Numbered from the stretch's first letter, positions 19,551 through 43,694 are shown. The stretch: 64,000 nucleotides of DNA from an uncultured Gammaproteobacteria bacterium (GCA_964425075.1 CAYRKM010000002.1:64058-128057), one strand, 5' to 3'. The notes: generated from the sequence alone by a model not told the origin. Numbers and translations are program-made.

Positions 19551-19627
19551 ACTAAAGTGCCTGCGCTGAATGAAGCTGAAGTGCTTGCACTGAGTGAAGC
19601 TGAAGTGCTTGCACTGAGTGAAGCGAA
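19551..19627 (+). repeat. tRNA-flanking tandem repeat (24-nt units, core AGTGC-YT-GCRCT), 3' side of tRNA-Ala
   Basis: ctaaagtgcctgcgctgaatgaag / ctgaagtgcttgcactgagtgaag x2. Confidence 0.8.
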
Positions 19628-19698
19628 GTGGACCCGAGGGGAATTGAACCCCTCCCTCATCCATGCCATGGATGCATTCTACCGATGAACTACGGGCC
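19628..19698 (-). tRNA. tRNA-Ala (GGC)
   Basis: Reverse complement has acceptor gggcccg with the G3:U70 identity pair, anticodon loop ATGGCAT, T-loop TTCAATT. Confidence 0.85.
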
Positions 19699-19728
19699 CG
19701 CTGTTTCATATTCTACAAAACTTAATAC

Positions 19729-19799
19729 TAGATTTGAAGTGCCTGTGCTGAGGAACGTAAAGACGAAGTGCCTGCACTGAGAAACGTAAAGACGAAGTG
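19729..19799 (+). repeat. tRNA-flanking tandem repeat (29-nt units), 5' side of tRNA-Ala
   Basis: gaagtgcctgtgctgaggaacgtaaagac / gaagtgcctgcactgagaaacgtaaagac / gaagtgc. Confidence 0.8.
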
Positions 19800-19806
19800 C
19801 TACAAT

Positions 19807-21018
19807 ATGGCTACTATGCACATACCCCTCGCTGAAAAATTACGACCTCTAACTTTGGATGATTTCGTGGGGCAGGAACATTTAGTTGGAAAAGGTAAAC
19901 CTATCAGAAGGATGATTGAAACTGGAAATATAACCTCAATGATGTTCTGGGGACCTCCAGGATGTGGCAAAACAACACTTGCAACTGTAATTGCAAATTC
20001 TCTGGACGCTGAGTTTGTCTTCTTCTCCGCTGTAACAAGTGGGGTAGAGGACGTAAGAAAAGTTATAAAGCACGCTTCAACTGTCCGTGAACAGGAAAAT
20101 AAAAAAACCATTCTTTTTGTTGACGAAATTCATAGGTTTAATAAATCGCAACAAGATGCTTTTTTACCTCACGTAGAAAATGGGACGATAATTTTAATTG
20201 GTGCTACAACAGAAAACCCTGGATTCCGAATAAATGCACCTCTATTGTCTCGTAGTCAGCTATTTGTTCTTAAGCCTTTAACTAACGAGAATATTGAGCA
20301 AGTAGTAAAAAGAGCTGTTTCCTTTTTTCCAAAACATTCAATAGAGAATGAGGCCGTTGAGCATATTACGCGTATGTCAAATGGGGACGCCAGATTTGCA
20401 ATTAACGCGATAGAAGTTGCTACGTCTTTGGCTAAAAAAATTACTTTAAAAGTGGTTGAAGAGGCTATGCAAAAAAGAGCTGTGTACTATGACAAAAAGG
20501 GGGATTATCATTACGACACAATTTCAGCCTTTATAAAATCCATGCGTGGAGGAGATCCTGACGCAACTCTTCATTATCTTGCCCGCATGCTAAAAGCAGG
20601 AGAAGACCCGATGTTTATAGCCAGACGTATGGTAATATTTGCCTCAGAAGACATAGGAAACGCTCAGCCAACAGCACTTGTGCTTGCAACAAGCGCAATG
20701 CAGGCGGTACATATGATAGGACTTCCCGAGGCACAACTTATTCTTGCCCAAACCGCAACGTATCTTTCAACGGCTCAGAAATCTATCGCTTCAACTATAG
20801 GAATAAGTGAGGCTATGCAAGACGTTGAGATAGATAATCTACCAGAAATTCCACTTCACTTAAGAAATGCCGCAAATAAAGTCATGAAGAATTTGAATTA
20901 TGGAAAAGGACATGTGAGATACGCCTGGAAGGAAGAAAGAGAAACAGGAAAAAAGGTTAACCAAGACTATTTACCAGATAAGCTTAAGGGCAAGAAGTAC
21001 TACAAACGCGATTGGTAA
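19807..21018 (+). CDS. rarA: replication-associated recombination protein A (AAA+ ATPase)
   Basis: Walker A GPPGCGKTTLA, Walker B ILFVDEIHRFNK. The ATG at 19807 is preferred because the 19768 start lies inside the repeat array. Confidence 0.85.
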   Translation: MATMHIPLAEKLRPLTLDDFVGQEHLVGKGKPIRRMIETGNITSMMFWGPPGCGKTTLATVIANSLDAEFVFFSAVTSGVEDVRKVIKHASTVREQENKKTILFVDEIHRFNKSQQDAFLPHVENGTIILIGATTENPGFRINAPLLSRSQLFVLKPLTNENIEQVVKRAVSFFPKHSIENEAVEHITRMSNGDARFAINAIEVATSLAKKITLKVVEEAMQKRAVYYDKKGDYHYDTISAFIKSMRGGDPDATLHYLARMLKAGEDPMFIARRMVIFASEDIGNAQPTALVLATSAMQAVHMIGLPEAQLILAQTATYLSTAQKSIASTIGISEAMQDVEIDNLPEIPLHLRNAANKVMKNLNYGKGHVRYAWKEERETGKKVNQDYLPDKLKGKKYYKRDW

Positions 21019-21089
21019 AAGTGTTTCAAGCTTTACTTTAAAAAAGACTAGTAAAATATTCTCTTTTTCCTATAAACTAAAATTGACTT

Positions 21090-21668
21090 ATGACAGGTAG
21101 AACTCATGATCTTGCTGCATTTACAGCTCTAACCATAACTGTTGCTTTCTTTCCTCTTGAGAAAATGACCTTAGCAACTGCATTTGTGGCAGTGGGAAGC
21201 AATATGTTGGGAGGCCTTGCTCCTGACATAGATCAGTCAACCGGTGCATTATGGAAAAAAATACGATTCGGTGCGATTTTGGGAAAATTATTATACCCCA
21301 TTTTTGGAGGTCATAGACATATTTCTCATTCCTTTTTAGGACTTATTTTCTTTGGAATTTTGGCAAAATTTCTTTTGACATTAATTTCGAATGTTTTACT
21401 AGTTGATATAAATATTGTCTGGTGGTCATTTATGATAGGAGTCGTTTCGCATTTGGTAACAGACACATTTACTCATTCGGGTGTCCCTTGGTTATTCCCA
21501 ATTCCTACGAAATTTGGAATTCCTCCAATAAAAGCATTACGATTTCATACCGGAAGTTTTGTAGAGAAGGGTCTCGTCTTCCCTGGGTTAGTTTTGGTAA
21601 ATATGTATATTGTCTACAGCAATTACCCAAGATTTCTAGAATTTATTAGGGAATATATTGTTCGCTGA
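21090..21668 (+). CDS. membrane-bound metal-dependent hydrolase-like protein (DUF457/YdjM-like)
   Basis: 4-5 TM helices with conserved His/Asp pattern. Confidence 0.45.
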   Translation: MTGRTHDLAAFTALTITVAFFPLEKMTLATAFVAVGSNMLGGLAPDIDQSTGALWKKIRFGAILGKLLYPIFGGHRHISHSFLGLIFFGILAKFLLTLISNVLLVDINIVWWSFMIGVVSHLVTDTFTHSGVPWLFPIPTKFGIPPIKALRFHTGSFVEKGLVFPGLVLVNMYIVYSNYPRFLEFIREYIVR

Positions 21669-21678
21669 GTCTATCAAG

Positions 21679-21754
21679 GTTTGCCTGCACTGAACAAAGC
21701 TGAATGTGCTTGCACTGAACAAAGCTGAATGTGCTTGCACTGAGTGAAACGAAG
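21679..21754 (+). repeat. tRNA-flanking tandem repeat (25-nt units), 3' side of tRNA-Leu(TAA)
   Basis: gaatgtgcttgcactgaacaaagct x2 plus variants. Confidence 0.8.
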
Positions 21755-21835
21755 TGCCTGGAAAGGGACTCGAACCCTTATCCCCGAAGGGACACGCTCT
21801 TAAGGCGTGCGTGTATACCATTCCACCACCCAGGC
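21755..21835 (-). tRNA. tRNA-Leu (TAA)
   Basis: Reverse complement has anticodon stem cacgc/gcgtg, loop CTTAAGA, long variable arm, T-loop TTCGAGT. Confidence 0.85.
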
Positions 21836-21871
21836 AACAAAAAGAATTATACCAAATAATGAGGTTAAAAC

Positions 21872-22846
21872 CTACGTGTGTGGTGGAGGATGCACTCCAA
21901 GTCTCTCAAGGCTATAGTCAAGCAAGTCTTTCATTTCTTGTCTTCTATTTTCACTATTTAGAAGTACGGCAATAATTCTGTGTCCCTTGTATTCTAAATA
22001 GGTTACCAAGCACATTCCTGCCTCATCTGTATAGCCTGTTTTTACGCCCTTAACACCTGGGTAGGTTGTTAATAAATTTGTCTGATTGGAAAGAAGGAAA
22101 TATTTATGATTTGATGTTTGTTCAATCTCATGAGTGACAGTTGAAGCAATGTTTACAAAATCTTTGTTTTGAAGAGCGAGGCGGGTTAAAACCAGCAGGT
22201 CTTTTGCAGTACTATATTGTTTCCCCTCACCCTCAAGCCCACTTGGGTTCGTGAAACGAGTATCGGAAAGACCTAAATCTTCAGCTTTTTTATTCATAAG
22301 ATGCACAAAGTCTTGTCTTTGAAATTGACTTCCCTGAGCTAGTGCCTCTGCTGCATCATTTCCTGAATGCAGGATCAATCCATATAGTAAATCCTCTACG
22401 CTTACCTTCTCACCTGCAGTTAACCCCATGGCATTTTCCCCAACTTCAGCAGCTGACTTACTAATCAAAAGTTCTTCATTCAAATTCATATTCTCAAGAA
22501 CTATTACAGCAGTCATTATCTTTGTAAGCGAGGCTATTGGTAGTTTTTCAGATACATTTTTTCCATAAATAAATGTATCTGTTGTAAGGTCATATGAAAG
22601 CGCTGCTCTTGAATTCAATTTGAGGTCATTTGTACCCTTTTCGTCTTCTGGAATCCTTGGAGTCCAAAAATCGGTTGCATCAGCTTCCTTGTAAAAAGAG
22701 TTTACTAATAGAGCGGGAAGAGGTGAAAGTATTTTTGCTGCATTCTGGAATCTTGATTCACTGAAATATGAAAGACTTGAAAGAACTGTTGTTACAACAA
22801 GAAACAAAACTACGCACCAAAACAAAAAGGAGCCTAAAGTTTTCAT
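21872..22846 (-). CDS. D-alanyl-D-alanine carboxypeptidase (PBP5/6-type)
   Basis: SxxK (ASLTK), SGN and KTG(Y)T motifs in order; signal peptide. Confidence 0.8.
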   Translation of the reverse strand: MKTLGSFLFWCVVLFLVVTTVLSSLSYFSESRFQNAAKILSPLPALLVNSFYKEADATDFWTPRIPEDEKGTNDLKLNSRAALSYDLTTDTFIYGKNVSEKLPIASLTKIMTAVIVLENMNLNEELLISKSAAEVGENAMGLTAGEKVSVEDLLYGLILHSGNDAAEALAQGSQFQRQDFVHLMNKKAEDLGLSDTRFTNPSGLEGEGKQYSTAKDLLVLTRLALQNKDFVNIASTVTHEIEQTSNHKYFLLSNQTNLLTTYPGVKGVKTGYTDEAGMCLVTYLEYKGHRIIAVLLNSENRRQEMKDLLDYSLERLGVHPPPHT

Positions 22847-22958
22847 AGAGTTTTTAGTATATCCTTATTGGATAGTTCGTTTCAATCTTTTTGTACGTTG
22901 TAAATCCCTTCGTTTTTTTATAATCGAAGATTGCATTTCTAAGTGATATAATTAGGAA

Positions 22959-23552
22959 ATGTCTTCGACCACAAATTATCAGAAACACATCAACCAAAAT
23001 CCAATCCAACGCCTCCTTATACAAAATTTTTATAACTCATTTTTCAAAGTCATAAAACCCTTAAGAGCAAAGAGTGTGCTTGATGTAGGTTGTGGGGAGG
23101 GATTTACGCTTAAAAAGCTTGAGGAAAAAAAGATTGGACAAAACAATGTTGGAGTAGATTATTCAAATACTGCCATAAAGTTGGGTAAAAAAATGTACCC
23201 AAACCTTAAACTTCAAACCGGAAGTGTATATGATATGGATTTTAAAGATAATTCATTTGACCTTATTATTTGCACAGAAGTCCTAGAGCATCTTGATGAC
23301 CCAAATAAGGCTATTGAAGAGATGAAAAGAGTAGGAAGTAAATATTTATTGTTCTCAGTACCAAATGAACCTTTTTTTATTGGAGCTAATTTACTGAGAG
23401 GCAAATATTTAAAAACTTTTGGAAATCATCCAGAACATATTAATCATTGGACATTTTGGAGTTTCGAAAAACTACTAAGAAAGCATGGGCTAAAAATAAT
23501 GAAAAAAAGATATCCCTTTGCTTGGACGATGATTTTGGCAAAAAAAGTGTGA
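22959..23552 (+). CDS. class I SAM-dependent methyltransferase
   Basis: Motif I VLDVGCGEGF; Methyltransf_11-like layout. Confidence 0.7.
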   Translation: MSSTTNYQKHINQNPIQRLLIQNFYNSFFKVIKPLRAKSVLDVGCGEGFTLKKLEEKKIGQNNVGVDYSNTAIKLGKKMYPNLKLQTGSVYDMDFKDNSFDLIICTEVLEHLDDPNKAIEEMKRVGSKYLLFSVPNEPFFIGANLLRGKYLKTFGNHPEHINHWTFWSFEKLLRKHGLKIMKKRYPFAWTMILAKKV

Positions 23553-23553
23553 A

Positions 23554-24708
23554 CTAACGACCAATAAACCTTCTGAAGTATACAAATAAAACTCCTAGTC
23601 CAAGCGTCATCGCTACAAATGATATTAACCAACCAATTATTGGAATCCAAGTTATTACCCACAACACAGGAACTCCAACAAAAGAGGCTAGTGGTAGAGA
23701 GACTTTGTATGTCTTTTTTTTATTGTAAGAAAGAATCTCGTGTCCTAAGTAAATACCTGCAAGCATTTTACTAAGCATTAATGCAATAATCCAAATAAGT
23801 CCCAATAAAACAGCAATGGGGATACCTATGAGTGTGAATAGAAGAAATATCACCAAAATTGGAGTAAGGAAAAGCACAACAAGTCCCCAACCAAAAAGAG
23901 ATATTTTATCATGCTTAATACCCTCAACTAACTCTTGAATTAGTTTTGGAAGGAAAAATGCCAACAGTATCGCAAAAAGAGTAAACGAAACCAAGGACAT
24001 GATTTGTCCCACTAACCATACTAAAGTAAAAAACTTGGCGAATTCAGAAGCTTGCTTGTTCTGTGTCTGCAACTCAATCTGCTTATAGTTAGTCCTTCCT
24101 GAAACCGTAGCGTTGTCTAAAATTTCTGCTTTTTGTGGTGAACGATAGGAGAAATTCCCTTTTATAAGTGCGTCATCAGCAAGAGTCACTTTTTGAGACT
24201 CTACATCTACTTTTCCATTAACAGTGCCTGTTACATATAAATCTTGCATGACACCTGATATGTCTCTGGAAACAACACCCATAATGTTTACAGATTGTCC
24301 CGCAGACATAATCTCACCATTTATTCTTCCGTTTTTCTCTATGATTAACTCTTGCCCCAAAAAAGCAACATTTCTTTCAACAGTACCGGCAATAATTAGT
24401 GTTTGCCCAGCAAATCTAACATCACCATTGACCGTTCCCTCAATTCGTAAAGTTTGCCCAGCACATAGTACGTCCCCTTGGACAACGCCTACAACCTTTA
24501 AACTTTGCCCGGCACAAAACACGTCGCTTGCTACATTTCCATTAACTGTTACATTTTGTCCCGTACCAATAAGAGTCTCATTGATAATTACGTCTCGTGG
24601 AACAGTAATATTGTCACCAGAACGTACGGAAATGGCATGCGAGGTTGAAGGAAAAAAAACAAAAAGGAGAACAAACGTTATCACAAAATACTGAATCAAA
24701 CGTTTCAT
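23554..24708 (-). CDS. bactofilin-like beta-helix repeat protein with N-terminal signal/TM and C-terminal multi-TM domain
   Basis: Repeats VxGxVxxDVxCAGQxL typical of bactofilin (DUF583) beta-helix; hydrophobic termini. Confidence 0.45.
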   Translation of the reverse strand: MKRLIQYFVITFVLLFVFFPSTSHAISVRSGDNITVPRDVIINETLIGTGQNVTVNGNVASDVFCAGQSLKVVGVVQGDVLCAGQTLRIEGTVNGDVRFAGQTLIIAGTVERNVAFLGQELIIEKNGRINGEIMSAGQSVNIMGVVSRDISGVMQDLYVTGTVNGKVDVESQKVTLADDALIKGNFSYRSPQKAEILDNATVSGRTNYKQIELQTQNKQASEFAKFFTLVWLVGQIMSLVSFTLFAILLAFFLPKLIQELVEGIKHDKISLFGWGLVVLFLTPILVIFLLFTLIGIPIAVLLGLIWIIALMLSKMLAGIYLGHEILSYNKKKTYKVSLPLASFVGVPVLWVITWIPIIGWLISFVAMTLGLGVLFVYFRRFIGR

Positions 24709-24985
24709 AAGAGAAGATTATTACAAAGTGGTAAAGAAGTCAACCAAACAGACGACAACCCATCCCCCGTAGTTTTTAATTTGCCAGAGCGATGGGTTGT
24801 ATTTATCTTAAGTTGCCTTAAGACTCGGTAGCCCAAAACAATTCTATAATAGAATGATTTGTAACACGTGTCAACAACAGCAATACTATAAGAAACAAAT
24901 TCTTTTCATAAATAGGCTTTGCTGTTTAAAACATACTGATTTAACAACCTAAATCAGAAAGTGGGGGGCATTAAAAAGGGATATC

Positions 24986-25927
24986 CTAGAGCCACTTTTT
25001 GTAGAAAAATATAAGAAGTATGCCAACTACTGAAATAGCCATTATCCACAATATAAAAATAAAAGCTGAAGGATTGGATGCAATGGGAAGTGATATGTTC
25101 ATTCCATAAAATCCTGTAATTATATTGGGTATTGTTACAACAATCGTAAGAGCAGTAAGAAGTTTTATTATTTTATTTAAGTTGTTTGTATAAATTACCT
25201 GATATGAGTCCCTAATTCCACGAATGCTCTTAAGACTTACAGTACAAATATCAGCAGACTGCTTAATACCAATTAAAAGGTCTTGTAGCAAATCTCTATC
25301 TTCTTCATAAACCTGTAAATACTTCTTGCTTGAAAGAGTTTCAACAACATTGTTTAGTGGCACGAGTGCCGAAAGGTATTGATTTAACAATTCTTCGCTT
25401 TCACTTAATATCAAAAAGTCCTCAGCGTTAATTTTCTTCATTTCGCGCCTTCCGTGTGGAACTCTGGCTGCAGCATTTTTAATATCAAGAGTGAATTGTT
25501 GGGCAATTTTAAGAAGTAATTTTATAAGAAGCTTCGTTTTCTGAGTAGTTGCAAGCATCGTATTTTGCTCCAAGATTTTCTGAACAAGTTGGTTTTTGGT
25601 AGGACATATTGTCACCAAATATTTATCAGTAATTACAACTGTTAGAAGTTCAGTATAAAGCTCGTCACCCTCATCAGAAGGAAATCTAAGATAAATAAGA
25701 ACACCTTCCTCTTGGCGTTCGATACGCGGAATTTCATAGATATCAAGCGCATCTTGCAAATCAAGATATTGAAGACCAGTAAGTTCACTGACTTTTTCAA
25801 GATCTTCGCGTTTTGCATTCTCAACATTCATCCAGCTTCCTGGCTTATATTTGTCCGTTTCCTTAAACTTTTTGTCTTTAAGTGTTTTGTAATAAATTGA
25901 AATCATAATTAATATTAATTGTAACAA
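24986..25927 (-). CDS. corA: CorA-family Mg2+/Co2+ transporter
   Basis: YGMN signature (GFYGMNISLP) before the two C-terminal TM helices. Confidence 0.8.
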   Translation of the reverse strand: MLQLILIMISIYYKTLKDKKFKETDKYKPGSWMNVENAKREDLEKVSELTGLQYLDLQDALDIYEIPRIERQEEGVLIYLRFPSDEGDELYTELLTVVITDKYLVTICPTKNQLVQKILEQNTMLATTQKTKLLIKLLLKIAQQFTLDIKNAAARVPHGRREMKKINAEDFLILSESEELLNQYLSALVPLNNVVETLSSKKYLQVYEEDRDLLQDLLIGIKQSADICTVSLKSIRGIRDSYQVIYTNNLNKIIKLLTALTIVVTIPNIITGFYGMNISLPIASNPSAFIFILWIMAISVVGILLIFFYKKWL

Positions 25928-26093
25928 TACTTTTCACTAAAGAACAAGAAGACACTCGTGCATTGTGGAAACATAAAAAAACATGTATAATACAAGTTGA
26001 GCAATGAAAGTAATCCCTCGGGAACTATTTCTTCTCTTTTTACTATCGATATATACATAATTTAATCCTCAGAATGAAAGGCGGTGAAATCAA

Positions 26094-26459
26094 ATGACAA
26101 AACTTTACATAGGAAATCTTCCTTATTCTGTAACCAATGATGATCTTACAAATCTTTTTGGAGAATATGGAACTGTTACCTCAGCATCCGTTGTGACCGA
26201 CAGGGAAACCGGTCGAAGCAAGGGATTTGGATTCGTAGAAATCGAAGAAGATGATAAAGCTCTTGAAGCTATCGAAAAACTCGATAAATCATCTTTCCAA
26301 GAAAGAACAATCTTTGTTTCTGTTGCTAGACCTCGCGAAGATAGACCATCAAACGGTGGTGGATATTCAGGCGGAGGCGGAGGCAGAAGCTTTGGGAATG
26401 ACAGACGTGGTGGTGGAGGAAGTGGCGGATTTAGACGCGACGACCGACGCGGTCACTAA
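26094..26459 (+). CDS. RRM-type RNA-binding protein with Gly/Arg-rich tail
   Basis: RNP-2 LYIGNL and RNP-1 KGFGFVEI motifs; C-terminal GGYSGGGGGRSFGNDRRGGGG. Confidence 0.85.
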   Translation: MTKLYIGNLPYSVTNDDLTNLFGEYGTVTSASVVTDRETGRSKGFGFVEIEEDDKALEAIEKLDKSSFQERTIFVSVARPREDRPSNGGGYSGGGGGRSFGNDRRGGGGSGGFRRDDRRGH

Positions 26460-26533
26460 ACAAAATACCACAAGAAAGATAGTTTTTTAAATGATATTTA
26501 ATTGACGTGACTTGTGGTATTTTTTTGGCAAAA

Positions 26534-27040
26534 TTAGCCCTTATTAGCTGCACCCAAATTAGCATCCGGCGCAAATACTTGCGCTACAATTTTTACCTCC
26601 GGTCTTTGCAAATGCCAATCTCTTGCTTGCCTCTCTCTTTGTAGGCCTCGCAAGTCCCCTACAGTAACTTCAATTGATTGGTGATCAATAGACAAACCAC
26701 CAGCGGGTAGCACTCCTGTCTTTGCATATTCACGATATCTATCTTGAATCATTCTGAAAGCTTTCGCTTTTTGTATTGAACCCTCTGTTACCAATAAGGC
26801 GTCCACTAAAGCACCACTTTGACTCTTAAACATAATTGCAAGGTAACCCTCCCATTCCTCGATAACCCTTCTTTCTTCAACCGTTAGGCCATCAATAGTG
26901 CCAGGAATTCTTCCACAATAAACATCAACTATGGGGGTCTCGTCGGAAAGAATAACTGCCTTAGCCCTAACACCAGTCAGAAACTCTGGAGTTAAAACTT
27001 CCATGTCTGGAGTTGTACCGACAACTTCTGCTCGTTGCAT
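26534..27040 (-). CDS. hypothetical protein (GC content visibly above neighbours)
   Basis: 168-aa ORF, no recognised motif. Confidence 0.35.
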   Translation of the reverse strand: MQRAEVVGTTPDMEVLTPEFLTGVRAKAVILSDETPIVDVYCGRIPGTIDGLTVEERRVIEEWEGYLAIMFKSQSGALVDALLVTEGSIQKAKAFRMIQDRYREYAKTGVLPAGGLSIDHQSIEVTVGDLRGLQRERQARDWHLQRPEVKIVAQVFAPDANLGAANKG

Positions 27041-34853: not shown

Positions 34854-34937
34854 TGGGCTTGTGCTGAAATTGGTATACAGGCATGCTTGAGGTGCATGTG
34901 TCAGTAATGGCGTGGAGGTTCGAGTCCTCTCAGGCCC
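34854..34937 (+). tRNA. tRNA-Leu (GAG)
   Basis: Anticodon stem catgc/gcatg, loop TTGAGGT, long variable arm, T-loop TTCGAGT. Confidence 0.85.
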
Positions 34938-35088
34938 ACACAGAAAGGTTTGGATAGGACTCGGATTTTGTCAAAGAGTCCTCTCAGGCCCACTTCGTCC
35001 GCCTACCGGCGGACTCAGTGCGGGCACTTTTATAAATATAGAATAGGTTTTCCTTTTTGGGCTTGTCCTGAGAAGGCAAAGCCGACGA

Positions 35089-35264: not shown

Positions 35265-35519
35265 ATGCAATATTTTGTGTACATTCTTGAATGCAGTGAT
35301 GGTTCGCTTTATACAGGCTATACAACTGATATAGAGCGAAGGGTGAAAGAGCACAACAAAGGAAAGAGCGGAGCTAAGTCTGTACGAGGGAAATTACCTG
35401 CCGAATTAGTTTACTCCGAAACCTTTGTAACTCTTTCAGAGGCATTGAAACGAGAAGCTGAAATCAAAAGTTGGAAGAGATACGAAAAACAAATGTTAAT
35501 AGCGACGAAGCGGGCGTAA
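35265..35519 (+). CDS. GIY-YIG nuclease-superfamily small protein (UPF0213/YhbQ-like)
   Basis: YFVYILECSDGSLYTGYTTDIERRVKEHN is a GIY-YIG core. Wedged between tRNA-Phe and tRNA-Gly. Confidence 0.75.
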   Translation: MQYFVYILECSDGSLYTGYTTDIERRVKEHNKGKSGAKSVRGKLPAELVYSETFVTLSEALKREAEIKSWKRYEKQMLIATKRA

Positions 35520-36699: not shown

Positions 36700-36804
36700 G
36701 ACTTTTTTTAACATATTTGACCTTAAGTCTTCTAGACTGAGATTTTCAACAAAATCTTGCTACATAATTTTTTTCTAAGGATTAAAAATAAAGCCTATAA
36801 TACT

Positions 36805-36832
36805 TGACATTTTGAACATCTCGTGCTAATAT
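36805..36832 (+). promoter_or_regulatory. sigma-70-type promoter for the structured RNA: TTGACA-16-TAATAT
   Basis: ttgaca at 36805-36810, 16-nt spacer, taatat at 36827-36832. Confidence 0.55.
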
Positions 36833-36839
36833 GCGCCTA

Positions 36840-37312
36840 TTCTGACTGATGGAAGTTTGAAGTGGTCAGCACTTATGTGTCTGAGCAGGGAGAACCTCCA
36901 AAGGTCTAGGAAGGACGGTTCGTTGAAACAGGTGGATAGCTAGCCGGCTTCGGCCGGATCCGGTGAAGGACCGGAAATGCAGCATGCTTGTGGAAGTCGG
37001 TCCCGGAAGGGATGACAACCACGCAGCCCGGGTGAAACCGGGTACGGAAAGGAGCAAGCCACATATGCTTGCGACCAGCACCGGACGGATGCTAAAGTTC
37101 GACGCGATCGACACCGCCGACCCGAACGACGTCATCGTCGGCTACTCGCCCACCCCGGATGGGGTCAACGGCACGTAGCTCGCCGCGACCGTCCCGAACG
37201 CTGCTAGACCGCTAGCCTAGAGAGGGAAACCTTTCTTTGCTAGCCAAAGCTAGCGCCACGTTCACCGCCCCCCGTCTTGGCACTGCCAAGTCGGGGGGCA
37301 ACTCTTTTCCTC
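36840..37312 (+). ncRNA. GC-rich structured ncRNA (~470 nt), identity unresolved; SRP RNA-like or RNase P RNA are candidates
   Basis: Sharp local GC rise with many nested helices. Contains a GGAA tetraloop hairpin (gucccGGAAgggau) and GGGUGAAAC. Consensus promoter upstream; GC hairpin plus T-run terminator at the 3' end. Confidence 0.45.
37267..37312 (+). terminator. intrinsic terminator of the structured RNA
   Basis: gccccccg-loop-cggggggc followed by aactcttttcctctcc. Confidence 0.7.
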
Positions 37313-37349
37313 TCCAAAAAAAATTCTTGAGAAATTAAATTAGAGACAA

Positions 37350-37491
37350 TGATGTGCCTGCACTGTGCAAGAAGTGTTACGTTGTGAAACAAAGTCTCGA
37401 AGTGCTTTCATCGATCAAGAAGTGCTTGCGCTGAACGAAATGGAAGCCTGCACTGAATGAAGTTGAGGTGCTTGCACTGAACGTAGTGAAG
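37350..37491 (+). repeat. tRNA-flanking repeat array (>=5 irregularly spaced units), 3' side of tRNA-Leu(CAG)
   Basis: Five irregularly spaced GTGCYTGCRCTGA-type cores, e.g. gatgtgcctgcactgtg, gaagtgcttgcgctgaa, gaggtgcttgcactgaa. Confidence 0.75.
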
Positions 37492-37574
37492 TGCCCGAAA
37501 AAGGAGTCGAACCTTCACACCCATAAGGGCACAGCGTTCTGAACACTGCGTGTCTACCATTCCACCATTCGGGC
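37492..37574 (-). tRNA. tRNA-Leu (CAG)
   Basis: Reverse complement has acceptor gcccgaa/ttcgggc, anticodon loop TTCAGAA, long variable arm. Confidence 0.85.
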
Positions 37575-37718
37575 AACAAACATATTGTAACAGAGACAAT
37601 TTATATCATAATTACTCAATTTCAAAGAAAAAAATTTGCCTGTAAATATTACCTTTAGACTATCTTATCAATCCAAACAGCACTTGACCAGAATTTTTTT
37701 TTATGGTTCTATAGAAAG

Positions 37719-38351
37719 ATGCAAGACAGGGTAAACACTAATTCCTCTAATTTTGAAAGCAAAAGCAATTCATCTCTTAAAAAGGTTTTGTTAGTAAGCA
37801 TTTATTTATCAGCCATTCCAATATTTATCGTTTTTGTAATGCTGTTTTCTCTTTACGCAAAGTACGACGTCAATGGATATATTTCTCGTCAGAATATTTC
37901 CCTTAATTACCGAGCTTTACCTGAAAATAGTAATAATAGTACTGTTTCTCTTGAAGCAGACGACGCTAGAATTCAAGCTCTCGAGGAGTTATTTGATACT
38001 TATGACTCACCTCTAGTTGGTCATGCAGCAAAAATAGTAGAAGAGGCTGATAAGCACAATATAGACTATAGACTTTTACCCTCAATCGCTATGCAAGAAA
38101 GCACTTTGTGTAAAAAAATTATAAAAGACTCTCATAATTGCTGGGGTTTTGGAATTTATGGAGGAAAAGTAACAAAATTTGATAACTATAATGAGGCAAT
38201 AGAAACTGTAACAAGAACATTATCCAAAAAATATGTTCAAGCTGGACTTGAAGAACCACATGAAATTGTAGAGAAATATACGCCATCTGATGACGGAAAA
38301 TGGGCAAATGTAGTCAATATGATGATGGAAACTATCAAAAACTCACTTTAA
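37719..38351 (+). CDS. N-anchored putative peptidoglycan N-acetylglucosaminidase (GH73-like)
   Basis: N-terminal TM; region LLPSIAMQESTLCKK resembles the GH73 catalytic-Glu block (A.A.LESGWG). Confidence 0.4.
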   Translation: MQDRVNTNSSNFESKSNSSLKKVLLVSIYLSAIPIFIVFVMLFSLYAKYDVNGYISRQNISLNYRALPENSNNSTVSLEADDARIQALEELFDTYDSPLVGHAAKIVEEADKHNIDYRLLPSIAMQESTLCKKIIKDSHNCWGFGIYGGKVTKFDNYNEAIETVTRTLSKKYVQAGLEEPHEIVEKYTPSDDGKWANVVNMMMETIKNSL

Positions 38352-38538
38352 TAGCCTCAAAAGCACATTTGCATCCCGTAGTATACCCCTTGACAAACCC
38401 ATAGTGTAATGATATACTTCGTACTAGATCCTAAGGTAGCCCAAAACTACTTTAGGATTTTTTTTGCCTAAAAAACTTAGGTAATTCTTCTCATTAATTT
38501 CCCCAAATCGGCCGAGAGTAAGACTCGACCCATATCTA

Positions 38539-39129
38539 ATGCAACTTATAAAGGTTACATTAAATATGAAAAGATATATTTTACCTATTATACTTTTGGC
38601 TTTTGCCAACGCAGCTATGCCATGGGCCCTTATGCCTAGGGTGTATCAAGCCTACGCGAAAGATACTGCATATACAAATGCGGAACTTTCTGTGGCTTTA
38701 AAAAATACTTCAGGAAATGACATGCGTGTTGATGCTTTGAGAATTATTTTTGAAAAGCGCAACTCTCCTTTAGTGCCTTATGCTAAGGCATATGTAGAAC
38801 TTGCTGATAAGCACGGTGTTGACTGGAAACTTTTACCTGCTATTTCAGGTCTTGAATCCTCATTTGGTATTCATTTAATGCCTGGCTCCCACAATGGTTA
38901 TGGGTGGGGTGGTGGACATATCTACTTCTCGTCTTGGGAAGAGGGTATTGATACTATTAACAAGGCTCTTGCTGAAAAGTATTATGGCCGTGGGGCAAAT
39001 ACTGTATGGAAAATTGGTCCTATTTATGCTGAGTCGCCTACTTGGGCTGTGAGAGTAAATAGCTTTATGGAGCAAATTGAGGCCGAGCATAACAAATTGC
39101 AAAACTCTAAGCTTGCCTTGACTATTTAA
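38539..39129 (+). CDS. paralog of the upstream GH73-like protein
   Basis: Shares the blocks YDSPLVGHA/RNSPLVPYA and LLPSIAMQES/LLPAISGLES with the 37719-38351 ORF. Confidence 0.4.
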   Translation: MQLIKVTLNMKRYILPIILLAFANAAMPWALMPRVYQAYAKDTAYTNAELSVALKNTSGNDMRVDALRIIFEKRNSPLVPYAKAYVELADKHGVDWKLLPAISGLESSFGIHLMPGSHNGYGWGGGHIYFSSWEEGIDTINKALAEKYYGRGANTVWKIGPIYAESPTWAVRVNSFMEQIEAEHNKLQNSKLALTI

Positions 39130-39170
39130 GGATAGCCTCAAACCCTCTTTTAGAGTATAATTGCCATATT

Positions 39171-39253
39171 GCCCGAGTGGTGAAATGGTATACACGCTAG
39201 TTTTAGGAACTAGTACCCTTACAGGTGTGGAGGTTCGAGTCCTCTCTCGGGCA
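39171..39253 (+). tRNA. tRNA-Leu (TAG)
   Basis: Acceptor gcccgag/ctcgggc, anticodon stem ctagt/actag, loop TTTAGGA, long variable arm. Confidence 0.85.
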
Positions 39254-39352
39254 CTTCACTACGTTCAGTGCAAGCACCTCAACTTCATTCAGTGCAGGCT
39301 TCCATTTCGTTCAGTGCAAGTACTTCGGGGCCTTGTTTCTCAGCGCTTGCAC
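39254..39352 (+). repeat. tRNA-flanking repeat array, 3' side of tRNA-Leu(TAG); same family in reverse orientation
   Basis: ttcagtgcaagcacctc / ttcagtgcaggcttcc / ttcagtgcaagtacttc. Confidence 0.75.
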
Positions 39353-39387
39353 AAAAAATACCTATTCTCTTGCACCCATAATTTCGC

Positions 39388-40341
39388 TTGTGTTACGCTA
39401 AATACATGGTATTTCTTCAGGCTTTAGTGCTGCTTGGCTCTTTTGTAACCATTTGGTATGGGGCAGGACTTATTGTTGCTTCTGCGAATAAATTTGCGCA
39501 CAAAATACGAATTTCATCATTTGCTTTTTCTTTCCTTGTATTAGGAATTCTTACGTCAACACCTGAGTTTGGTGTCGGCGTAACTGCTGTTGCTGAAAAT
39601 AGCCCCGAAATATTTATCGGAAACCTAATCGGAGGAATACCCGTGCTTTTTCTCTTTGTAATACCAATCCTTGCTATCTTTGGGAGGGGAATAAACCTCA
39701 AAAATAAAATTAATCCCAAAAATCTTTTCTTCTCATTTATTGTTATGCTTCTGCCTGCTTTTTTTATAATCGATAAAGAGGTTACAAATTTTGAGGCTAT
39801 TATTATGATAGGTGCATACTTAGCCCTAGCTTATTCTATTCAGAAAAGTCACGGTTTTCTGGATGCAAATAATAGAAATATTCTTCACATAAAGTCATAC
39901 TCAACACAGGATATTTTAAAGATTCTCTATGGGGTTGGACTTGTTTTTGTTGCAAGTCACTATATTGTTGACGGGACTCGATTTTTTGCGGATCAATTAC
40001 AGGTATCGACATTTTATATCAGCCTTATTTTGCTCTCGATTGGTACTAATTTGCCAGAATTATCGCTTGCAATAAGAAGTATCATCTCGGGCAACAAAGA
40101 TGTAGCATTTGGAGACTATGTAGGCTCTGGAGCTGCTAATACCGTGCTCTTTGGGATATTTACACTTTTAACGCATGGTAACGTCTTGACGGTTAATCAT
40201 TTTCTTCCAGCCTTTATCCTGATGGGTGTAGGGCTTGGACTATTTTATGTATTCGCACGCTCAAAAGACATTATTTCTCAAAAGGAGGGGCTAGCTCTTT
40301 TTGCAGTATATATACTTTTTCTTATTCTTGAATTAAGTTAA
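39388..40341 (+). CDS. CaCA-family (Na+/Ca2+ exchanger-like, YrbG-type) membrane protein
   Basis: Two alpha-repeat signatures GILTSTPEF and GTNLPELSLAI. Confidence 0.7.
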   Translation: MCYAKYMVFLQALVLLGSFVTIWYGAGLIVASANKFAHKIRISSFAFSFLVLGILTSTPEFGVGVTAVAENSPEIFIGNLIGGIPVLFLFVIPILAIFGRGINLKNKINPKNLFFSFIVMLLPAFFIIDKEVTNFEAIIMIGAYLALAYSIQKSHGFLDANNRNILHIKSYSTQDILKILYGVGLVFVASHYIVDGTRFFADQLQVSTFYISLILLSIGTNLPELSLAIRSIISGNKDVAFGDYVGSGAANTVLFGIFTLLTHGNVLTVNHFLPAFILMGVGLGLFYVFARSKDIISQKEGLALFAVYILFLILELS

Positions 40342-40383
40342 TATTCTTTACAAACTTATCAATCCCCCCTATAATATCAACTT

Positions 40384-41244
40384 ATGGCTGAAACAAAAGC
40401 ACCCAAAACTACAAAACCAACCGAGGGAATTACAAGAAAACCCGATGGAACTATCGAGCTTACTGTTGTTATTCCTTGGTCAACGGCTTTAAAGGCACGA
40501 GAGGAAATAGAGGAGGATCTTCTTAAACACGTACAAGTTGCAGGCTTTAGAAAAGGTGCCGCTCCCAAAAATATTGCTAAAGGAAAACTAAATCCGGAGT
40601 TGGTTAGGGAAGAAATGCTTAAAAAGCTTATCGGAAAAGCATATAACGAAGCAGTAGAAAAGGAAAAACTTGTTCCTATTATTTCCCCAAGAATTCATAT
40701 AGACGTCTTTGAGGAAGGAACTGATATTGTATTTACAGCGGAAACTTGCGAAGAGCCTCAGGTTGAGCTTGGCAAATATAAAGACGACATACAGAAAGTG
40801 ACAGCGAAAGGTAAAATTATTGTACCCGGAAAAGAAGAAGAAAAGCCCTCCGTAGACGAGATACTTACCGCAGGTATTTCAGGAACAAAAATACAAATTC
40901 CCAATGTATTGGTAGAAAATGAAATCTCAAGACTTTTATCTCAAATGCTTGATGAGCTGAAGAAAATTGGCCTTACGCTTGATCAATATTTAGAATCTCG
41001 CAAACTTAATCCTGAACAACTTAGAGAAGAGTATAAAAATAAAGCTGAAAATGACCTTAAATTAGAATTCTTTTTAAGAAAAGTTGCAGATAGTGAGAAA
41101 ATAACTGTTGAAAAAGAGGATATTGAAAAGGCCCTAAACACTATAGAAAATCCAAAAGAACGTGAAGAAATTATGAAAAACCCATATCTTGTCGCCTCAA
41201 TTATAAGACAGCAAAAAACCCTCGATTTTCTTACGAAACTTTAG
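40384..41244 (+). CDS. tig: trigger factor, short form lacking the PPIase domain
   Basis: Ribosome-binding signature GFRKGAAPKN in the N-domain; 286 aa versus ~430 aa for the canonical protein. Confidence 0.6.
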   Translation: MAETKAPKTTKPTEGITRKPDGTIELTVVIPWSTALKAREEIEEDLLKHVQVAGFRKGAAPKNIAKGKLNPELVREEMLKKLIGKAYNEAVEKEKLVPIISPRIHIDVFEEGTDIVFTAETCEEPQVELGKYKDDIQKVTAKGKIIVPGKEEEKPSVDEILTAGISGTKIQIPNVLVENEISRLLSQMLDELKKIGLTLDQYLESRKLNPEQLREEYKNKAENDLKLEFFLRKVADSEKITVEKEDIEKALNTIENPKEREEIMKNPYLVASIIRQQKTLDFLTKL

Positions 41245-41365
41245 ATTCTTGCATAATTCTGTCTTTTTTATTTAAGAATTTCTGATACAATTGAGAAAAG
41301 TACTGCCACTTAGAATAAATTAATATAGGTTGATTTTTGAGCTTAAATCACATATAATTTAGGTT

Positions 41366-42028
41366 ATGAAACGGCAGGGGACAACCCCAAAATTTAAATA
41401 CACTGGTGAAGAAAGGGTTCGCTCTGAGGGAAGTGACTTGCTTGAGAGATTTTTCAAAACCGCAAAAACCGCAACTGAGGCTAAGAAAGTAGTAAGCGGT
41501 GTTCAGTCTGAGGCTAAAAAAAGCTTAGAAACCGCAGCTTTTCAGCTTTTTGGTGTATCTAGAGAGCTTAAGTCTGGACAAGAAGTAAAACTTCAACACG
41601 ACAATGAGGGAAAAGCCCCACATGAAGCAAAACCACAAGTAACTGAGGCTTTTCTTGAATATAGAGCTTCTCTTAGCAAACCAGAGTCCAGAAAGGACAG
41701 AGAGGCTCAGACTGAAATAAGTCAGCAAATTGAAATGGTTTTGGCCGAACTTCGCAACCTAAAAGAATCTTCCGACGAACTAAATGCCGCTTTTAAAGAT
41801 GTTGTTGTGGATGAAGTTCCTGAAAAACCAGGTATTTACCACCTAAGATTCTTTGAGGGATTTTTGAAAATGATAATGAAATTAAGAGAAAAAGTAGACG
41901 ATGCATCCATCTTTGCTAAGCTTTTTAGAAGCCGAAAGCAGGAAAGAAGATACTCATCTATGGCCAAAAAGAGTGGCACAAGCTTTACGCTTCACCACGA
42001 TAGAGCTGTAGCAACCCAAAGCGGATAA
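41366..42028 (+). CDS. hypothetical charged protein
   Basis: 220-aa ORF, Lys/Glu-rich. Confidence 0.4.
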   Translation: MKRQGTTPKFKYTGEERVRSEGSDLLERFFKTAKTATEAKKVVSGVQSEAKKSLETAAFQLFGVSRELKSGQEVKLQHDNEGKAPHEAKPQVTEAFLEYRASLSKPESRKDREAQTEISQQIEMVLAELRNLKESSDELNAAFKDVVVDEVPEKPGIYHLRFFEGFLKMIMKLREKVDDASIFAKLFRSRKQERRYSSMAKKSGTSFTLHHDRAVATQSG

Positions 42029-42042
42029 CTTCCCCAATAATA

Positions 42043-42071
42043 TTGACAAGCAGGCAGTTTCGTTGTTAAAT
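42043..42071 (+). promoter_or_regulatory. sigma-70-like promoter TTGACA-17-TTAAAT, immediately after the stop of the upstream gene
   Basis: ttgaca at 42043-42048, ttaaat at 42066-42071. Confidence 0.4.
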
Positions 42072-42177
42072 ATAATTTATTCTATGAATAAAAACCTTTA
42101 CCACATTGCTATGGTGCTCCTTCTAGGAGTGTAGTAGTGTGGGAGGAAGAGTGATCTAAAACACAAAAAATATTTAT

Positions 42178-42204
42178 AAACCTCCCACCAGGGGAGGTTT
42201 TTTT
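42178..42204 (+). terminator. intrinsic terminator-like hairpin plus T-run
   Basis: aaacctccc-acca-ggggagg-ttttttt. Confidence 0.6.
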
Positions 42205-42228
42205 GTGTGTAAAAAGGAGGTGAAAAAT

Positions 42229-42351
42229 ATGAGAGAAAATAAATTTACAGATGTATCTGAGACAGTGCAGGCTTTGCCTGTCATATTTAAAGTGCAAGAA
42301 AACTCTCAATTCAAAACATGTTTGAACGAAATAATTTTCCTAAAAATTTAG
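42229..42351 (+). CDS. small ORF (40 aa), hypothetical; overlaps the 5' end of the 42318 ORF in another frame
   Basis: ATG 10 nt after SD aaaaaggaggtgaa. Confidence 0.3.
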   Translation: MRENKFTDVSETVQALPVIFKVQENSQFKTCLNEIIFLKI

Positions 42352-42533
42352 ACTTTCTCCCGTTGGAAGAAAGAGAAGCGTTGAGAGCATGCGGACGACT
42401 AGTTGAAGGAGATTTTGGTGGTGAGGAACCTATAAGAGTATTTGAAAGCTCAACCAATTCTTGGGAAACTAGAGAGGTTACACGTTTCGTAGCGCTGGAA
42501 AACGGTGTGCCAGTTACAATTTTTTCCTTATGA
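42318..42533 (+). CDS. small ORF (71 aa), hypothetical
   Basis: ORF-track entry; no obvious SD. Confidence 0.25.
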   Translation: MFERNNFPKNLDFLPLEEREALRACGRLVEGDFGGEEPIRVFESSTNSWETREVTRFVALENGVPVTIFSL

Positions 42534-42620
42534 TACTTGACATAGTATTCGGAAGTTATTAGAATAGATTTTATGCAAAACCAGGTAAAACTATTTTCGT
42601 TTTACTTTACCTTCGCCTAG

Positions 42621-42694
42621 CGGAGGTTGGTTTTCATTGTAAAAATTAACCTCCGAAGACTCGAACAGTCGAGTCGCTAGCGGAGGTTTTTTTG
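42621..42694 (+). promoter_or_regulatory. terminator/antiterminator-type leader: central aacctccg can pair with either of two cggaggtt copies
   Basis: cggaggtt (42621-28), aacctccg (42648-55), cggaggtt (42681-88) followed by TTTTTTT; the inner gactcg/cgagtc helix extends the terminator. Confidence 0.5.
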
Positions 42695-42759
42695 TGGATT
42701 AATGGAAAAAATTGGCTTGCCCAGAGGAAGTAAAGCCAACGAAAGGAGGTGAATTATTT

Positions 42760-42972
42760 ATGGTTATAGAAACAAGACAACAAATGAAAGCTGGTGTTAT
42801 GGACACTATGGCTATGCCAGGGCCTACAGCTAAGGGATCGAACTCTCTGTGGCTTGAAAAGGCTATTGCGTTTAATAAACTTGCACGCGAAGGAGCTGAG
42901 CATGATGCCCAAGTAATTGCTTTTGCTGAACTAGCTGCAAATGTTCCTTACACATTAAAGGTAATCCGCTAG
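42760..42972 (+). CDS. small protein (70 aa), hypothetical
   Basis: ATG 9 nt after SD gaaaggaggtgaa; in frame with track ORF 42712-42972. Confidence 0.4.
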   Translation: MVIETRQQMKAGVMDTMAMPGPTAKGSNSLWLEKAIAFNKLAREGAEHDAQVIAFAELAANVPYTLKVIR

Positions 42973-43010
42973 CTAGCACACAAAATTTTAAAAGAAAGGA
43001 GGAAAAAAAT

Positions 43011-43241
43011 ATGAGCGAAATATTAAGAAGAGCAGGTTATCATAGCACTCTTGCAGACGTTGGTACTCTACGTGAAGCAAGACCAGCTAACCATCACACC
43101 ACTAATATGCCAGATGGTGATTTGCCTGTTTTTGATCAGGAACAAGCCGAATTTGGATATCCTGCGCAATCAGCATTACCAAAAGAAACGCCTATGCCAG
43201 AGTCCTTGCTTCATGCAGGAGAACCTTTGAAGATTTTATAA
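43011..43241 (+). CDS. small protein (76 aa), hypothetical
   Basis: ATG after SD gaaaggagg. Confidence 0.4.
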   Translation: MSEILRRAGYHSTLADVGTLREARPANHHTTNMPDGDLPVFDQEQAEFGYPAQSALPKETPMPESLLHAGEPLKIL

Positions 43242-43451
43242 TATTAAGAGTTTCTTGATTTGAGGCAAAAAATACATTACACTACGGAAAAGTGAACAAT
43301 TGGTTCAGTTGGTTGCGATGAATTCATTCATCGAGCGATGTTAGAAGTGTGGAGTTGTAACTCAGTTGGGGTTCGACTTTTGAAAAATGGACTCATAAGC
43401 AGAGTTTGCTTTTTGTTTTCGAAAAGTAGCTCAGTTGGTTACATTTTGTGT

Positions 43452-43525
43452 GGACGATTAGCTCAGTTGGTTAGAGCGTTGCATTGACATTGCAAAGGTC
43501 ACAAGTTCGAATCTTGTATCGTCCA
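43452..43525 (+). tRNA. tRNA-Val (GAC)
   Basis: Acceptor ggacgat/atcgtcc, anticodon stem ttgca/tgcaa, loop TTGACAT, T-loop TTCGAAT. Confidence 0.85.
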
Positions 43526-43620
43526 CACAAAATGCGCTGAAGCGTTGCATTGACATTGCAGAGGCCAGAGAAGGAATTTCATTAATGAAATTCGACTGTC
43601 GTCAGCGAATCCTCTTGGGT

Positions 43621-43694
43621 CCACTTCACTTCGTTCAGTGCAGGCACTTCAGTTTCGTTCAGCACGGGTACTTCGTTACACTCAGCACAGACAC
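43621..43694 (+). repeat. tRNA-flanking repeat array, 3' side of tRNA-Val(GAC)
   Basis: ttcagtgcaggcacttc / ttcagcacgggtacttc / ctcagcacagacac. Confidence 0.65.

Follow-up and report, generated by a model that had tools for sequence, protein, structure and literature searches.

Arrays of a short repeat at tRNA gene ends

We analyzed a 64,000-nucleotide stretch of DNA (CAYRKM010000002.1, positions 64058 to 128057; hereafter, the window) from an uncultured bacterium that is Levybacteria-like and falls within the Patescibacteria, or candidate phyla radiation (CPR). ARAGORN and Rfam found the same 14 tRNA genes in it. CCA is encoded in none of the 14, unlike in relatives, several of whose orthologous tRNAs encode it; position 74 is C in all 14, mostly followed by A. 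Our subject is a short repeat found in tandem arrays at the ends of some of these genes, together with the small GIY-YIG nuclease genes that copies of the same repeat bracket in other genomes.

The sequence AGTGCNNGCACT occurs five times in the 64-kb window, compared to 0.02 expected, and a two-core tandem pattern occurs six times, compared to 0 expected. Tandem Repeats Finder (TRF) identified the arrays at the places given in Table 1, with periods of 23 to 29 nt. A hidden Markov model (HMM) built from 13 units and applied with a cutoff of E<1 recovered 19 copies of 21 to 34 nt each at seven places, all of them at tRNA or decayed-tRNA ends, and no copy elsewhere in the 64 kb. Six of the seven arrays lie within 170 nt 3' of a tRNA gene (chance, ~1e-8), and all seven are oriented in the tRNA sense.

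Table 1. Positions of tRNA genes, repeat arrays and associated features in the window
Feature	Position	Strand	Details	Method
Right-end-type module after tRNA-Gly(TCC)	13917..13958	-	5' arm, antisense core (CTGAGCAGGGCGAAG), 13-nt copy of tRNA 3' end	
Array directly 3' of tRNA-Ala	19543..19627	-	units 19605-19627, 19581-19604, 19557-19580 and degenerate partial 19543-19556	TRF, HMM
tRNA-Ala(GGC)	19628..19699	-	anchor of two arrays	ARAGORN, Rfam
Array 5' of tRNA-Ala, between tRNA and rarA start	19739..19796	-	two 29-nt units, tRNA sense	HMM
Array directly 3' of tRNA-Leu(TAA)	21682..21753	-	three units	TRF, HMM
tRNA-Leu(TAA)	21754..21835	-		ARAGORN, Rfam
tRNA-Leu(GAG)	34855..34939	+		ARAGORN, Rfam
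Exact 18-nt copy of tRNA-Leu(GAG) 3' end	34976..34993	+	T-loop G57 to C74, at +37	
Single unit behind the Leu(GAG) end copy	34994..35027	+	hairpin insert in core: TTCG-TCCGCCTACCGGCGGA-CTCAGTGCGGGCAC	
GIY-YIG open reading frame, 84 aa, between tRNA-Phe and tRNA-Gly(GCC)	35265..35519	+	PF01541, E=5e-18	Pfam
Array 3' of tRNA-Leu(CAG)	37354..37490	-	three intact units 37422-37490, decayed units, last unit 37354-37373	HMM
tRNA-Leu(CAG)	37491..37574	-		ARAGORN, Rfam
tRNA-Leu(TAG)	39171..39254	+		ARAGORN, Rfam
Array 3' of tRNA-Leu(TAG)	39255..39352	+	four units	HMM
tRNA-Val(GAC), functional copy	43452..43526	+		ARAGORN, Rfam
Decayed partial older tRNA-Val(GAC)	43542..43624	+	anticodon arm and 3' end closing in GGGTCCAC	
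Array behind decayed tRNA-Val 3' end	43625..43694	+	three units	TRF, HMM

An initial annotation of the window had described these repeats as lying 3' of six tRNA genes. The repeats are real and bound to tRNA ends in this genome, and the placement holds for tRNA-Ala, -Leu(TAA), -Leu(CAG) and -Leu(TAG); the units near tRNA-Val(GAC) and tRNA-Leu(GAG), by contrast, come after a partial duplicate of the tRNA's 3' end rather than after the working gene. The Leu(GAG) unit, taken there for a degenerate copy of the core, proved to be complete, its core interrupted by a stable hairpin, and the tRNA-end copy preceding it looks like an insertion footprint. The motif is absent at the His, Arg, Gly(TCC), Gln, Phe, Gly(GCC) and Pro tRNAs of the window, as first described, and likewise at Val(TAC).

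The working tRNA-Val(GAC) gene is nested in its decayed older copy, with a D-arm upstream and the anticodon arm and 3' end downstream, and is flanked by an 8-bp inverted repeat (cattttgt/acaaaatg; window 43427-43624).

Twelve nucleotides of the repeat resemble an Oxford Nanopore Technologies adapter. A sequencing-adapter artifact was rejected, as an independent short-read Logan contig (L001) is identical to the window across arrays (19488-21715, ending inside the Leu[TAA] array) and the family also occurs in isolate genomes. A CRISPR array was rejected because the units abut, with a period equal to the unit length and no unique spacers of similar length. A coding repeat was likewise rejected: a reading frame is not maintained with periods of 23, 25 and 29 nt, and a Pfam search of five open-frame translations returned nothing meaningful.

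Comparison with relatives revealed how labile the arrays are. Seven relatives (79-92% RarA identity) have the same tRNA set in synteny and no arrays at Ala, Leu(TAA), Pro, Gly, Arg or His, and the tRNA-Ala of four relatives has no 3' array. The site 5' of tRNA-Ala is empty in two relatives with 92% RarA identity (L310 and L311; ...CCAC/TTCAAATCTAG, with the slash marking the junction here and below), where the window has a 58-nt insertion (2 x 29 nt) bounded by CACTTC. Behind tRNA-Leu(TAG), one relative (L320) has an empty site (...GCAC/AAAAAAG), and the closest relative (L319) has a different array, made of a hairpin-bearing unit and a short unit, in place of the four units in the window. The hairpin unit of L319 matches the window unit at 34994-35027 at 30 of 34 nt. 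Within the window, the first 70 nt of the Leu(CAG) and Leu(TAG) arrays are 97% identical (68/70), compared to 80% (67/84) for the tRNA bodies. The empty sites, the different array in L319 and the shared Leu blocks together indicate that arrays arise, alter and pass from one tRNA gene to a similar one over short periods. As they are absent or different at the same tRNAs of relatives, the arrays are recent and unstable rather than conserved regulatory sites, and those of the window should not be taken for regulatory elements. The proposed tie between the repeat and the tRNA transcript is thus not supported, and its lack in close relatives, the refuting outcome named in the initial annotation, marks it as a recent selfish repeat.

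A promoter-like site of rarA (window 19777-19806) has its -10 element (TACAAT) in the conserved flank and its -35 element inside the array 5' of tRNA-Ala, which means that the insertion replaced the relatives' sequence upstream of the -10 element.

Unit architecture and spread of the repeat family

Read in the tRNA sense, the unit is (CAC)TTC-N-TTCRYTCAGTGCARGCAC. Units begin exactly after N73 plus C (tRNA ...GCAC/TTC...), and the end of each unit is itself GCAC. The AGTGC-NN-GCACT dyad noted at the outset is formed by the 3' arm of one unit and the 5' arm of the next, and the same arms can also pair across the 11- to 13-nt core (GCACT-core-AGTGC). In more than 60 loci, arrays open with a 5' arm and close with a 3' arm. 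Single units without any dyad occur (window 34994-35027, L038 and L076), some with a stable hairpin inserted in the core, and the dyad center, which is the spacer between units, varies family-wide in length (0 nt to 5 nt or more). On these grounds, we take the real module to be an arm, a conserved core (CTTCGRC-NNN-GCTCAG type) and a complementary arm, and the palindrome is a by-product of tandem packing.

We searched for the family with two patterns: a genome scan used the window core in tandem, and a metagenome scan used only the core (CTTCGRC-NNN-GCTCAG, twice) and left the arms free. The genome scan found at least 118 loci in at least 10 phyla, with arrays starting in one phase. The matches listed include Chloroflexota, Acidobacteriota, Bacteroidota, Eremiobacterota, Planctomycetota, a Nostoc isolate, Flavobacterium isolates and several CPR groups, and their usual unit is CACTTCG(A/G)C-NNN-GCTCAGTGCA(A/G)G. 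Among at least 120 loci from the metagenome scan, we observed many arm variants, among them GCCCT/AGGGC, GTCCT/AGGAC, ATCCT/AGGAT, GTACT/AGTAC, ACACT/AGTGT and GGCCT/AGGCC. Compensatory changes affect each of the three free arm pairs in a set of 102 distinct units; double-change cells number 45, compared to 23+-3.4 in shuffles (0 of 500 reach 45), and slid registers score far lower.

Attachment to tRNA genes is a feature of only part of this family. In the genome sample listed, all tRNA-abutting arrays are in metagenome-assembled genomes (MAGs) of Patescibacteria type, including Saccharibacteria, Woesebacteria, Parcubacteria, Gottesmanbacteria and two MAGs labeled Gammaproteobacteria with CPR synteny. 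All CPR arrays at tRNAs start at N73+C(AC)TTCG. One Woesebacteria MAG has arrays behind Phe, three Leu and two Arg tRNAs and none behind Val(TAC), Lys or Gly(GCC). At two loci (L051 and L037), the array is antisense at the 5' end of tRNA-Thr, with the junction again reading ...GGC/AC TTCG, which argues against a role dependent on the pre-tRNA transcript; the fixed sense described for the window therefore holds in all seven of its arrays but not family-wide. Of the metagenome arrays among the matches listed, 1 of 126 lies within 1 kb of a tRNA. Outside the CPR, then, the family has no link to tRNAs.

Rfam 15, at gathering and permissive thresholds, returned only tRNAs above threshold in the window and ten family loci. 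A C/D-box sR17 match was rejected (18 bits against a threshold of 36, antisense strand); the weak match stems from periodic CUGA. When searched with four units, neither 5,426 E. coli genomes nor the INPHARED phages contained a match, and 72,556 plasmids contained a single unannotated one; a scan of viral contigs with a loose three-core pattern returned mostly unrelated simple repeats. Literature searches by sequence and by topic, with incomplete coverage, found no description of the family or of GIY-YIG proteins with MITEs (miniature inverted-repeat transposable elements) or repetitive extragenic palindromic (REP) elements in prokaryotes; the nearest item was a survey of REP elements (PMC3733652).

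The loci collected were chosen for containing arrays, except those centered on RarA, an exchanger or GIY-YIG genes. Of the neighboring genes that reach 120 aa across 240 loci, ABC ATPases (11 loci) and tyrosine recombinases (7 loci) are the only recurrent ones. Genes of that size thus form no consistent cassette; the size filter excluded small GIY-YIG open reading frames (ORFs).

In two Flavobacterium loci, arrays lie 3 to 25 nt from the 3' end of a tyrosine recombinase gene (L102, 5176-5224; L123, 6621-6654), and in L102 the stop codon of that ORF is inside the array. In seven metagenome loci (L202, L205, L206, L251, L263, L235 and L299), two sense units (arms GGGTGGTGAGTC) are followed by GTGAGCCTGTCGAACGG-type repeats that carry the same core reversed, giving mosaics resembling bacterial interspersed mosaic elements.

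Small GIY-YIG genes and the origin of the arrays

The only mobile-type gene in the window is the small GIY-YIG ORF between tRNA-Phe and tRNA-Gly(GCC). Its syntenic homologues in two loci, L066 and L076, have arrays before them and antisense units after them. The collected loci contain 10 GIY-YIG ORFs, at least 8 of them within ~100 nt of units (chance, ~2e-8, counted only in loci selected for arrays).

Complete cassettes were found in a Saccharibacteria locus at tRNA-Ser (L067) and a Parcubacteria locus at tRNA-Gln (L075). Both have the same order: the tRNA, three to five sense units, the GIY-YIG ORF, an antisense unit in the 3' end of the ORF and a second antisense unit. Each cassette closes with 18 nt that exactly repeat the 3' end of its own tRNA, at +410 and +449, respectively. 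The module behind tRNA-Gly(TCC) in the window has the same layout as the closing part of these cassettes. The nuclease subfamily of L067 and L075 also occurs behind tRNA-Asn (L104), and one nuclease copy is a pseudogene. Behind tRNA-Phe, L076 has an 81-nt version without a gene that has both ends and a duplication of 17 nt. The first base of the tRNA segment that is duplicated is T-loop G57 in L067, L075, the Leu(GAG) and Val(GAC) footprints of the window, L038 and L095; it starts one base earlier in the Pro copies (window and L318) and one or two bases later in L076 and L066.

The repeat is also built into the nuclease itself. We collected 120 database homologues of the L067-type protein (62-100% identity, from Pace-, Jorgensen- and Woesebacteria, among others), all of which match PF01541 and all of which have the conserved tail ...KLGYNxCTELVE(V/A)L. 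The codons of the CTELVEV-type tail are the reverse complement of the repeat unit, and many homologues extend into the second antisense unit, ending in ...DDLP* or ...ENLL*. The small GIY-YIG proteins are 84 to 105 aa long, with the catalytic domain as the only match. Bracketing of such genes by inverted units extends beyond the CPR, to a Gemmatimonadaceae MAG (L111), a metagenome contig (L212) and Methylobacterium bullatum, as well as Sphingomonas parapaucimobilis, where the sole annotation of the gene is "GIY-YIG nuclease family protein," and Planktothrix agardhii. By locus, nuclease genes flanked by inverted units are those of L067, L075, L111, L212, L324, L326 and L329, with Alphaproteobacteria, Cyanobacteria and Gemmatimonadota represented besides the CPR.

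A second GIY-YIG ORF of L076 (2200-2800) sits directly upstream of tRNA-Val(GAC), and before this ORF come 14 nt copied from the tRNA-Val 5' end and a hairpin-bearing antisense unit, an arrangement that suggests insertion at the 5' end of a tRNA.

From these sequence comparisons, we think it probable that the window arrays derive from very small mobile elements encoding a GIY-YIG nuclease, whose end-repeats, as solo ends or in miniature form, have multiplied in tandem without the gene. A complete element would span ~410 to 450 bp and consist of a stand-alone GIY-YIG nuclease gene with the unit on either side in inverted orientation. The unit is a weak hairpin with variable complementary arms around a conserved core. 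We infer that the nuclease mobilizes the units, as well as the chemistry by which it does so, and the unit hairpin is presumably its recognition target. In Patescibacteria, the element would insert at tRNA gene ends, exactly after N73(+C), and duplicate the segment from T-loop G57 to C74, such that the tRNA stays intact. Left ends would then multiply by slippage and genes would be lost, leaving solo arrays and footprints that could be copied by gene conversion between tRNA genes with similar 3' ends and would decay fast. In the window, the arrays would be transcribed as nothing more than trailer sequence 3' of the tRNA; RNase Z is known to remove such trailers from tRNA precursors that lack CCA. 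The remnants in the window would comprise four arrays directly on tRNA ends, one at a CACTTC site upstream of tRNA-Ala, two behind displaced old tRNA ends, as if a later insertion had pushed end and array downstream, and the right-end-type module behind tRNA-Gly(TCC). On this model, tRNA gene ends would be the main landing and turnover sites of selfish DNA in the compact genomes of the CPR.

Several observations weigh against such an origin. A tblastn search (E<10) found no nuclease gene or remnant adjoining the window arrays. The window has no intact cassette, and its GIY-YIG gene is of a different subfamily, with no intact units adjacent to it. About 230 of 240 array loci have no GIY-YIG gene within the fetched stretch, and the association of units with these genes was counted in array-selected loci. 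Conversely, small GIY-YIG genes occur without units (B. subtilis yazA, S. paeninsulae, Subdoligranulum and L327), and the conserved synteny (Phe-GIY-Gly) of two nuclease subfamilies has the look of domestication rather than mobility. A protein of 84 to 100 aa without an obvious DNA-binding domain is also an unusual transposase candidate, and we know of no GIY-YIG transposase in prokaryotes.

More tentatively, the unit and the small GIY-YIG gene could together represent a previously unrecognized class of autonomous element of ~0.4 kb, ranging from Patescibacteria to Alphaproteobacteria and Cyanobacteria, although we would not yet bet on it. In the CPR, its nuclease might target the near-universal geometry of the tRNA T-loop and 3' end, giving the 18-bp duplication, and the widespread 23- to 24-nt tandem repeats of environmental genomes might be its nonautonomous offspring. 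If so, the element would be among the smallest autonomous mobile elements known, would add a GIY-YIG counterpart to the REP system described below and would provide the first functional context for the ubiquitous genes of 80 to 100 aa annotated as "GIY-YIG nuclease family protein." It would also explain a very common unannotated repeat of uncultured bacteria, one that breaks short-read assemblies and makes spurious ORFs; the many spurious peptides of the widely prevalent FDKLRAG, LRQAQ and SLSKG types would stem from these tandem repeats.

Of the roles first proposed for the repeat, REP-like elements come closest, and the nearest analogue of the repeat and its GIY-YIG gene is the pairing of REP elements with REP-associated tyrosine transposases (RAYTs), known as the REPtron. 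REP elements are imperfect palindromes of 20 to 40 nt that form a stem-loop with an unpaired GTAG or CGTC tag at one end; they occur mostly as inverted dimers (head-to-head or tail-to-tail) and rarely head-to-tail, and the cognate RAYT is a Y1 HUH transposase (PMC3733652). Both systems consist of short multicopy hairpin repeats that are intergenic and occasionally within genes, with a few nuclease genes bracketed by inverted copies, and the units described here, at 21 to 34 nt with co-varying arms of 4 to 5 bp, are within the REP stem and loop ranges (PMC3733652). In contrast to REP elements, the unit consensus sequences have no GTAG or CGTC tag, and all window arrays and nearly all others are head-to-tail tandems. 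The flanked gene is of the GIY-YIG type (PF01541) rather than Y1 HUH, and no Y1 transposase is encoded in the window. Here, moreover, the loop is conserved while the stems vary, one family extends over many phyla, and CPR members attach to tRNA ends with an 18-nt duplication.

Other known systems share fewer features. Free-standing genes for GIY-YIG homing endonucleases include I-TevI and the seg genes of T4, one of which, segB, is located within the tRNA cluster of T4. They have in common with the present cassettes the GIY-YIG catalytic domain, a small selfish cassette and a location in tRNA gene regions, but the proteins here lack a separate DNA-binding domain for a long recognition site, and the cassettes have inverted terminal repeats, abundant derivatives without a gene and target duplications, which homing does not make. 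When tyrosine or serine recombinases direct integrative elements to tRNA genes, the tRNA likewise stays intact, with a copy from the T-loop to the 3' end marking the far side; the present elements, however, have no recombinase, measure ~0.4 kb and occur at many different tRNAs, each with its own sequence duplicated. The 81-nt element of L076 resembles a MITE in its inverted ends, target duplication and lack of a gene, whereas the window arrays are one-ended tandems rather than pairs of terminal inverted repeats, and the presumed partner is a GIY-YIG protein rather than a DDE transposase. Tandem repeats beside tRNA genes are also known from the 178-bp repeats of E. coli tyrT and the short tandem repeats linked to tRNA genes in Entamoeba, a eukaryote with tRNA genes in arrays. 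There too, a copy of the tRNA 3' end can close a unit, but the repeats are species-specific, with no cross-phylum core and no associated nuclease.

We weighed four alternative explanations against a GIY-YIG-encoding element. Rather unlikely, in our judgment, is that the arrays are a passive minisatellite without an enzyme of its own, seeded at CAC or CACTTC microhomology and shaped by template switching, gene conversion and slippage, with GIY-YIG genes simply sharing the same permissive spots. The junctions are compatible with such seeding: the empty CCAC/TTCAAATC and the filled CAC-(unit)x2-TTCAAATC yield a 6-nt overlap, and the overlap with the tRNA CAC varies, acceptor-stem ends supplying ...C-A-C. 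Units that are more alike within an array than between arrays, the block common to Leu genes and the many arrays with no nuclease gene nearby fit as well. Neutral slippage would not be expected, however, to yield a 16-nt core conserved across phyla with co-varying arms, to build a unit into the conserved coding tail of 120 nuclease homologues or to bracket a gene with inverted units in four phyla, and the recurrence of one starting base of the tRNA, G57, in exact 18-nt duplications speaks for a defined insertion event.

We regard as improbable that the arrays are a functional module of the pre-tRNA 3' trailer, such as a guide or decoy for RNase Z or RNase P, a substitute for a terminator or a protein sponge of the 3'ETS-leuZ or CsrB type. 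A conserved loop on a variable stem is what protein-binding RNA hairpins look like, yet tRNA-sense RNA folding was no better than in shuffles in five of six arrays (z~0; the Ala 3' array reached z=-3.9), indicating no stable RNA structure, and there was no Rfam match. Nor does any terminator-like site overlap an array of the window. The arrays start exactly at position 74 and in the tRNA sense at all tRNA 3' ends examined (7 in the window and ~15 at other CPR loci) and are present in several CPR classes despite compact genomes; against this, they are not conserved at the orthologous tRNAs of relatives, two are antisense at tRNA 5' ends, and in other phyla the family sits away from tRNAs, including inside ORFs.

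Slightly less probable still is that the repeats are recognition sites of a host-domesticated GIY-YIG nuclease acting in repair or defense, as REP elements are sites for gyrase and IHF, and not parts of a mobile element. The Phe-GIY-Gly synteny common to Levybacteria-like, Woesebacteria and another CPR genome would suit such a nuclease, as would the YazA-type small GIY-YIG proteins encoded in housekeeping operons. A domesticated gene would hardly account, however, for one subfamily behind three tRNAs (Ser, Gln and Asn), each with its own tRNA-end duplication, or for the pseudogene copy and the rapid turnover of arrays.

Finally, the suggestion that a dimeric DNA-binding protein dedicated to tRNA operons uses the AGTGC-NN-GCACT dyads as operators or as centromere-like sites is largely refuted and very improbable: perfect 5-bp dyad arms do recur in tandem, and a GCACT/AGTGC arm pair separated by 11 nt has the core geometry of the controlling inverted repeat of chaperone expression (CIRCE), but the dyad center varies, single units have no dyad, the arms co-vary with each other, the CIRCE operator (TTAGCACTC-N9-GAGTGCTAA) has no match with up to three mismatches allowed, and the sites are not conserved in relatives and lie in tRNA flanks, downstream of tRNAs rather than at promoters.

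Other features of the window

Cumulative GC skew is at its minimum at ~34-38 kb of the window, and the orientation of tRNAs and other genes turns from minus to plus at ~34.5 kb; a replication origin may lie near ~34-38 kb. Directly downstream of tRNA-Leu(CAG) and its array, positions 36880-37320 (minus strand) have ~60% G+C and no ORF in a genome of 38% G+C. RNA folding of this region gave z=-4.2, and Rfam returned no match at any threshold. It is probably an unannotated structured RNA of ~440 nt.

At tRNA-Pro (16114-16187, minus strand), a 67-nt unit is repeated in tandem at 15979-16132 (2.3 copies, 98% identity) and consists of the last 18 to 19 nt of tRNA-Pro and a 49-nt spacer. Two shorter hairpins follow, each with a terminal TTATCCCCGAC, and the same arrangement occurs at the tRNA-Pro ortholog of L318, a relative whose RarA is 79% identical. 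In two other relatives (L315, 1724-3352; L317, 4629-6173), genes for large serine recombinases adjoin tRNA-His and overlap the tRNA-Pro end. tRNA-His and tRNA-Pro also serve as targets for larger integrative elements.

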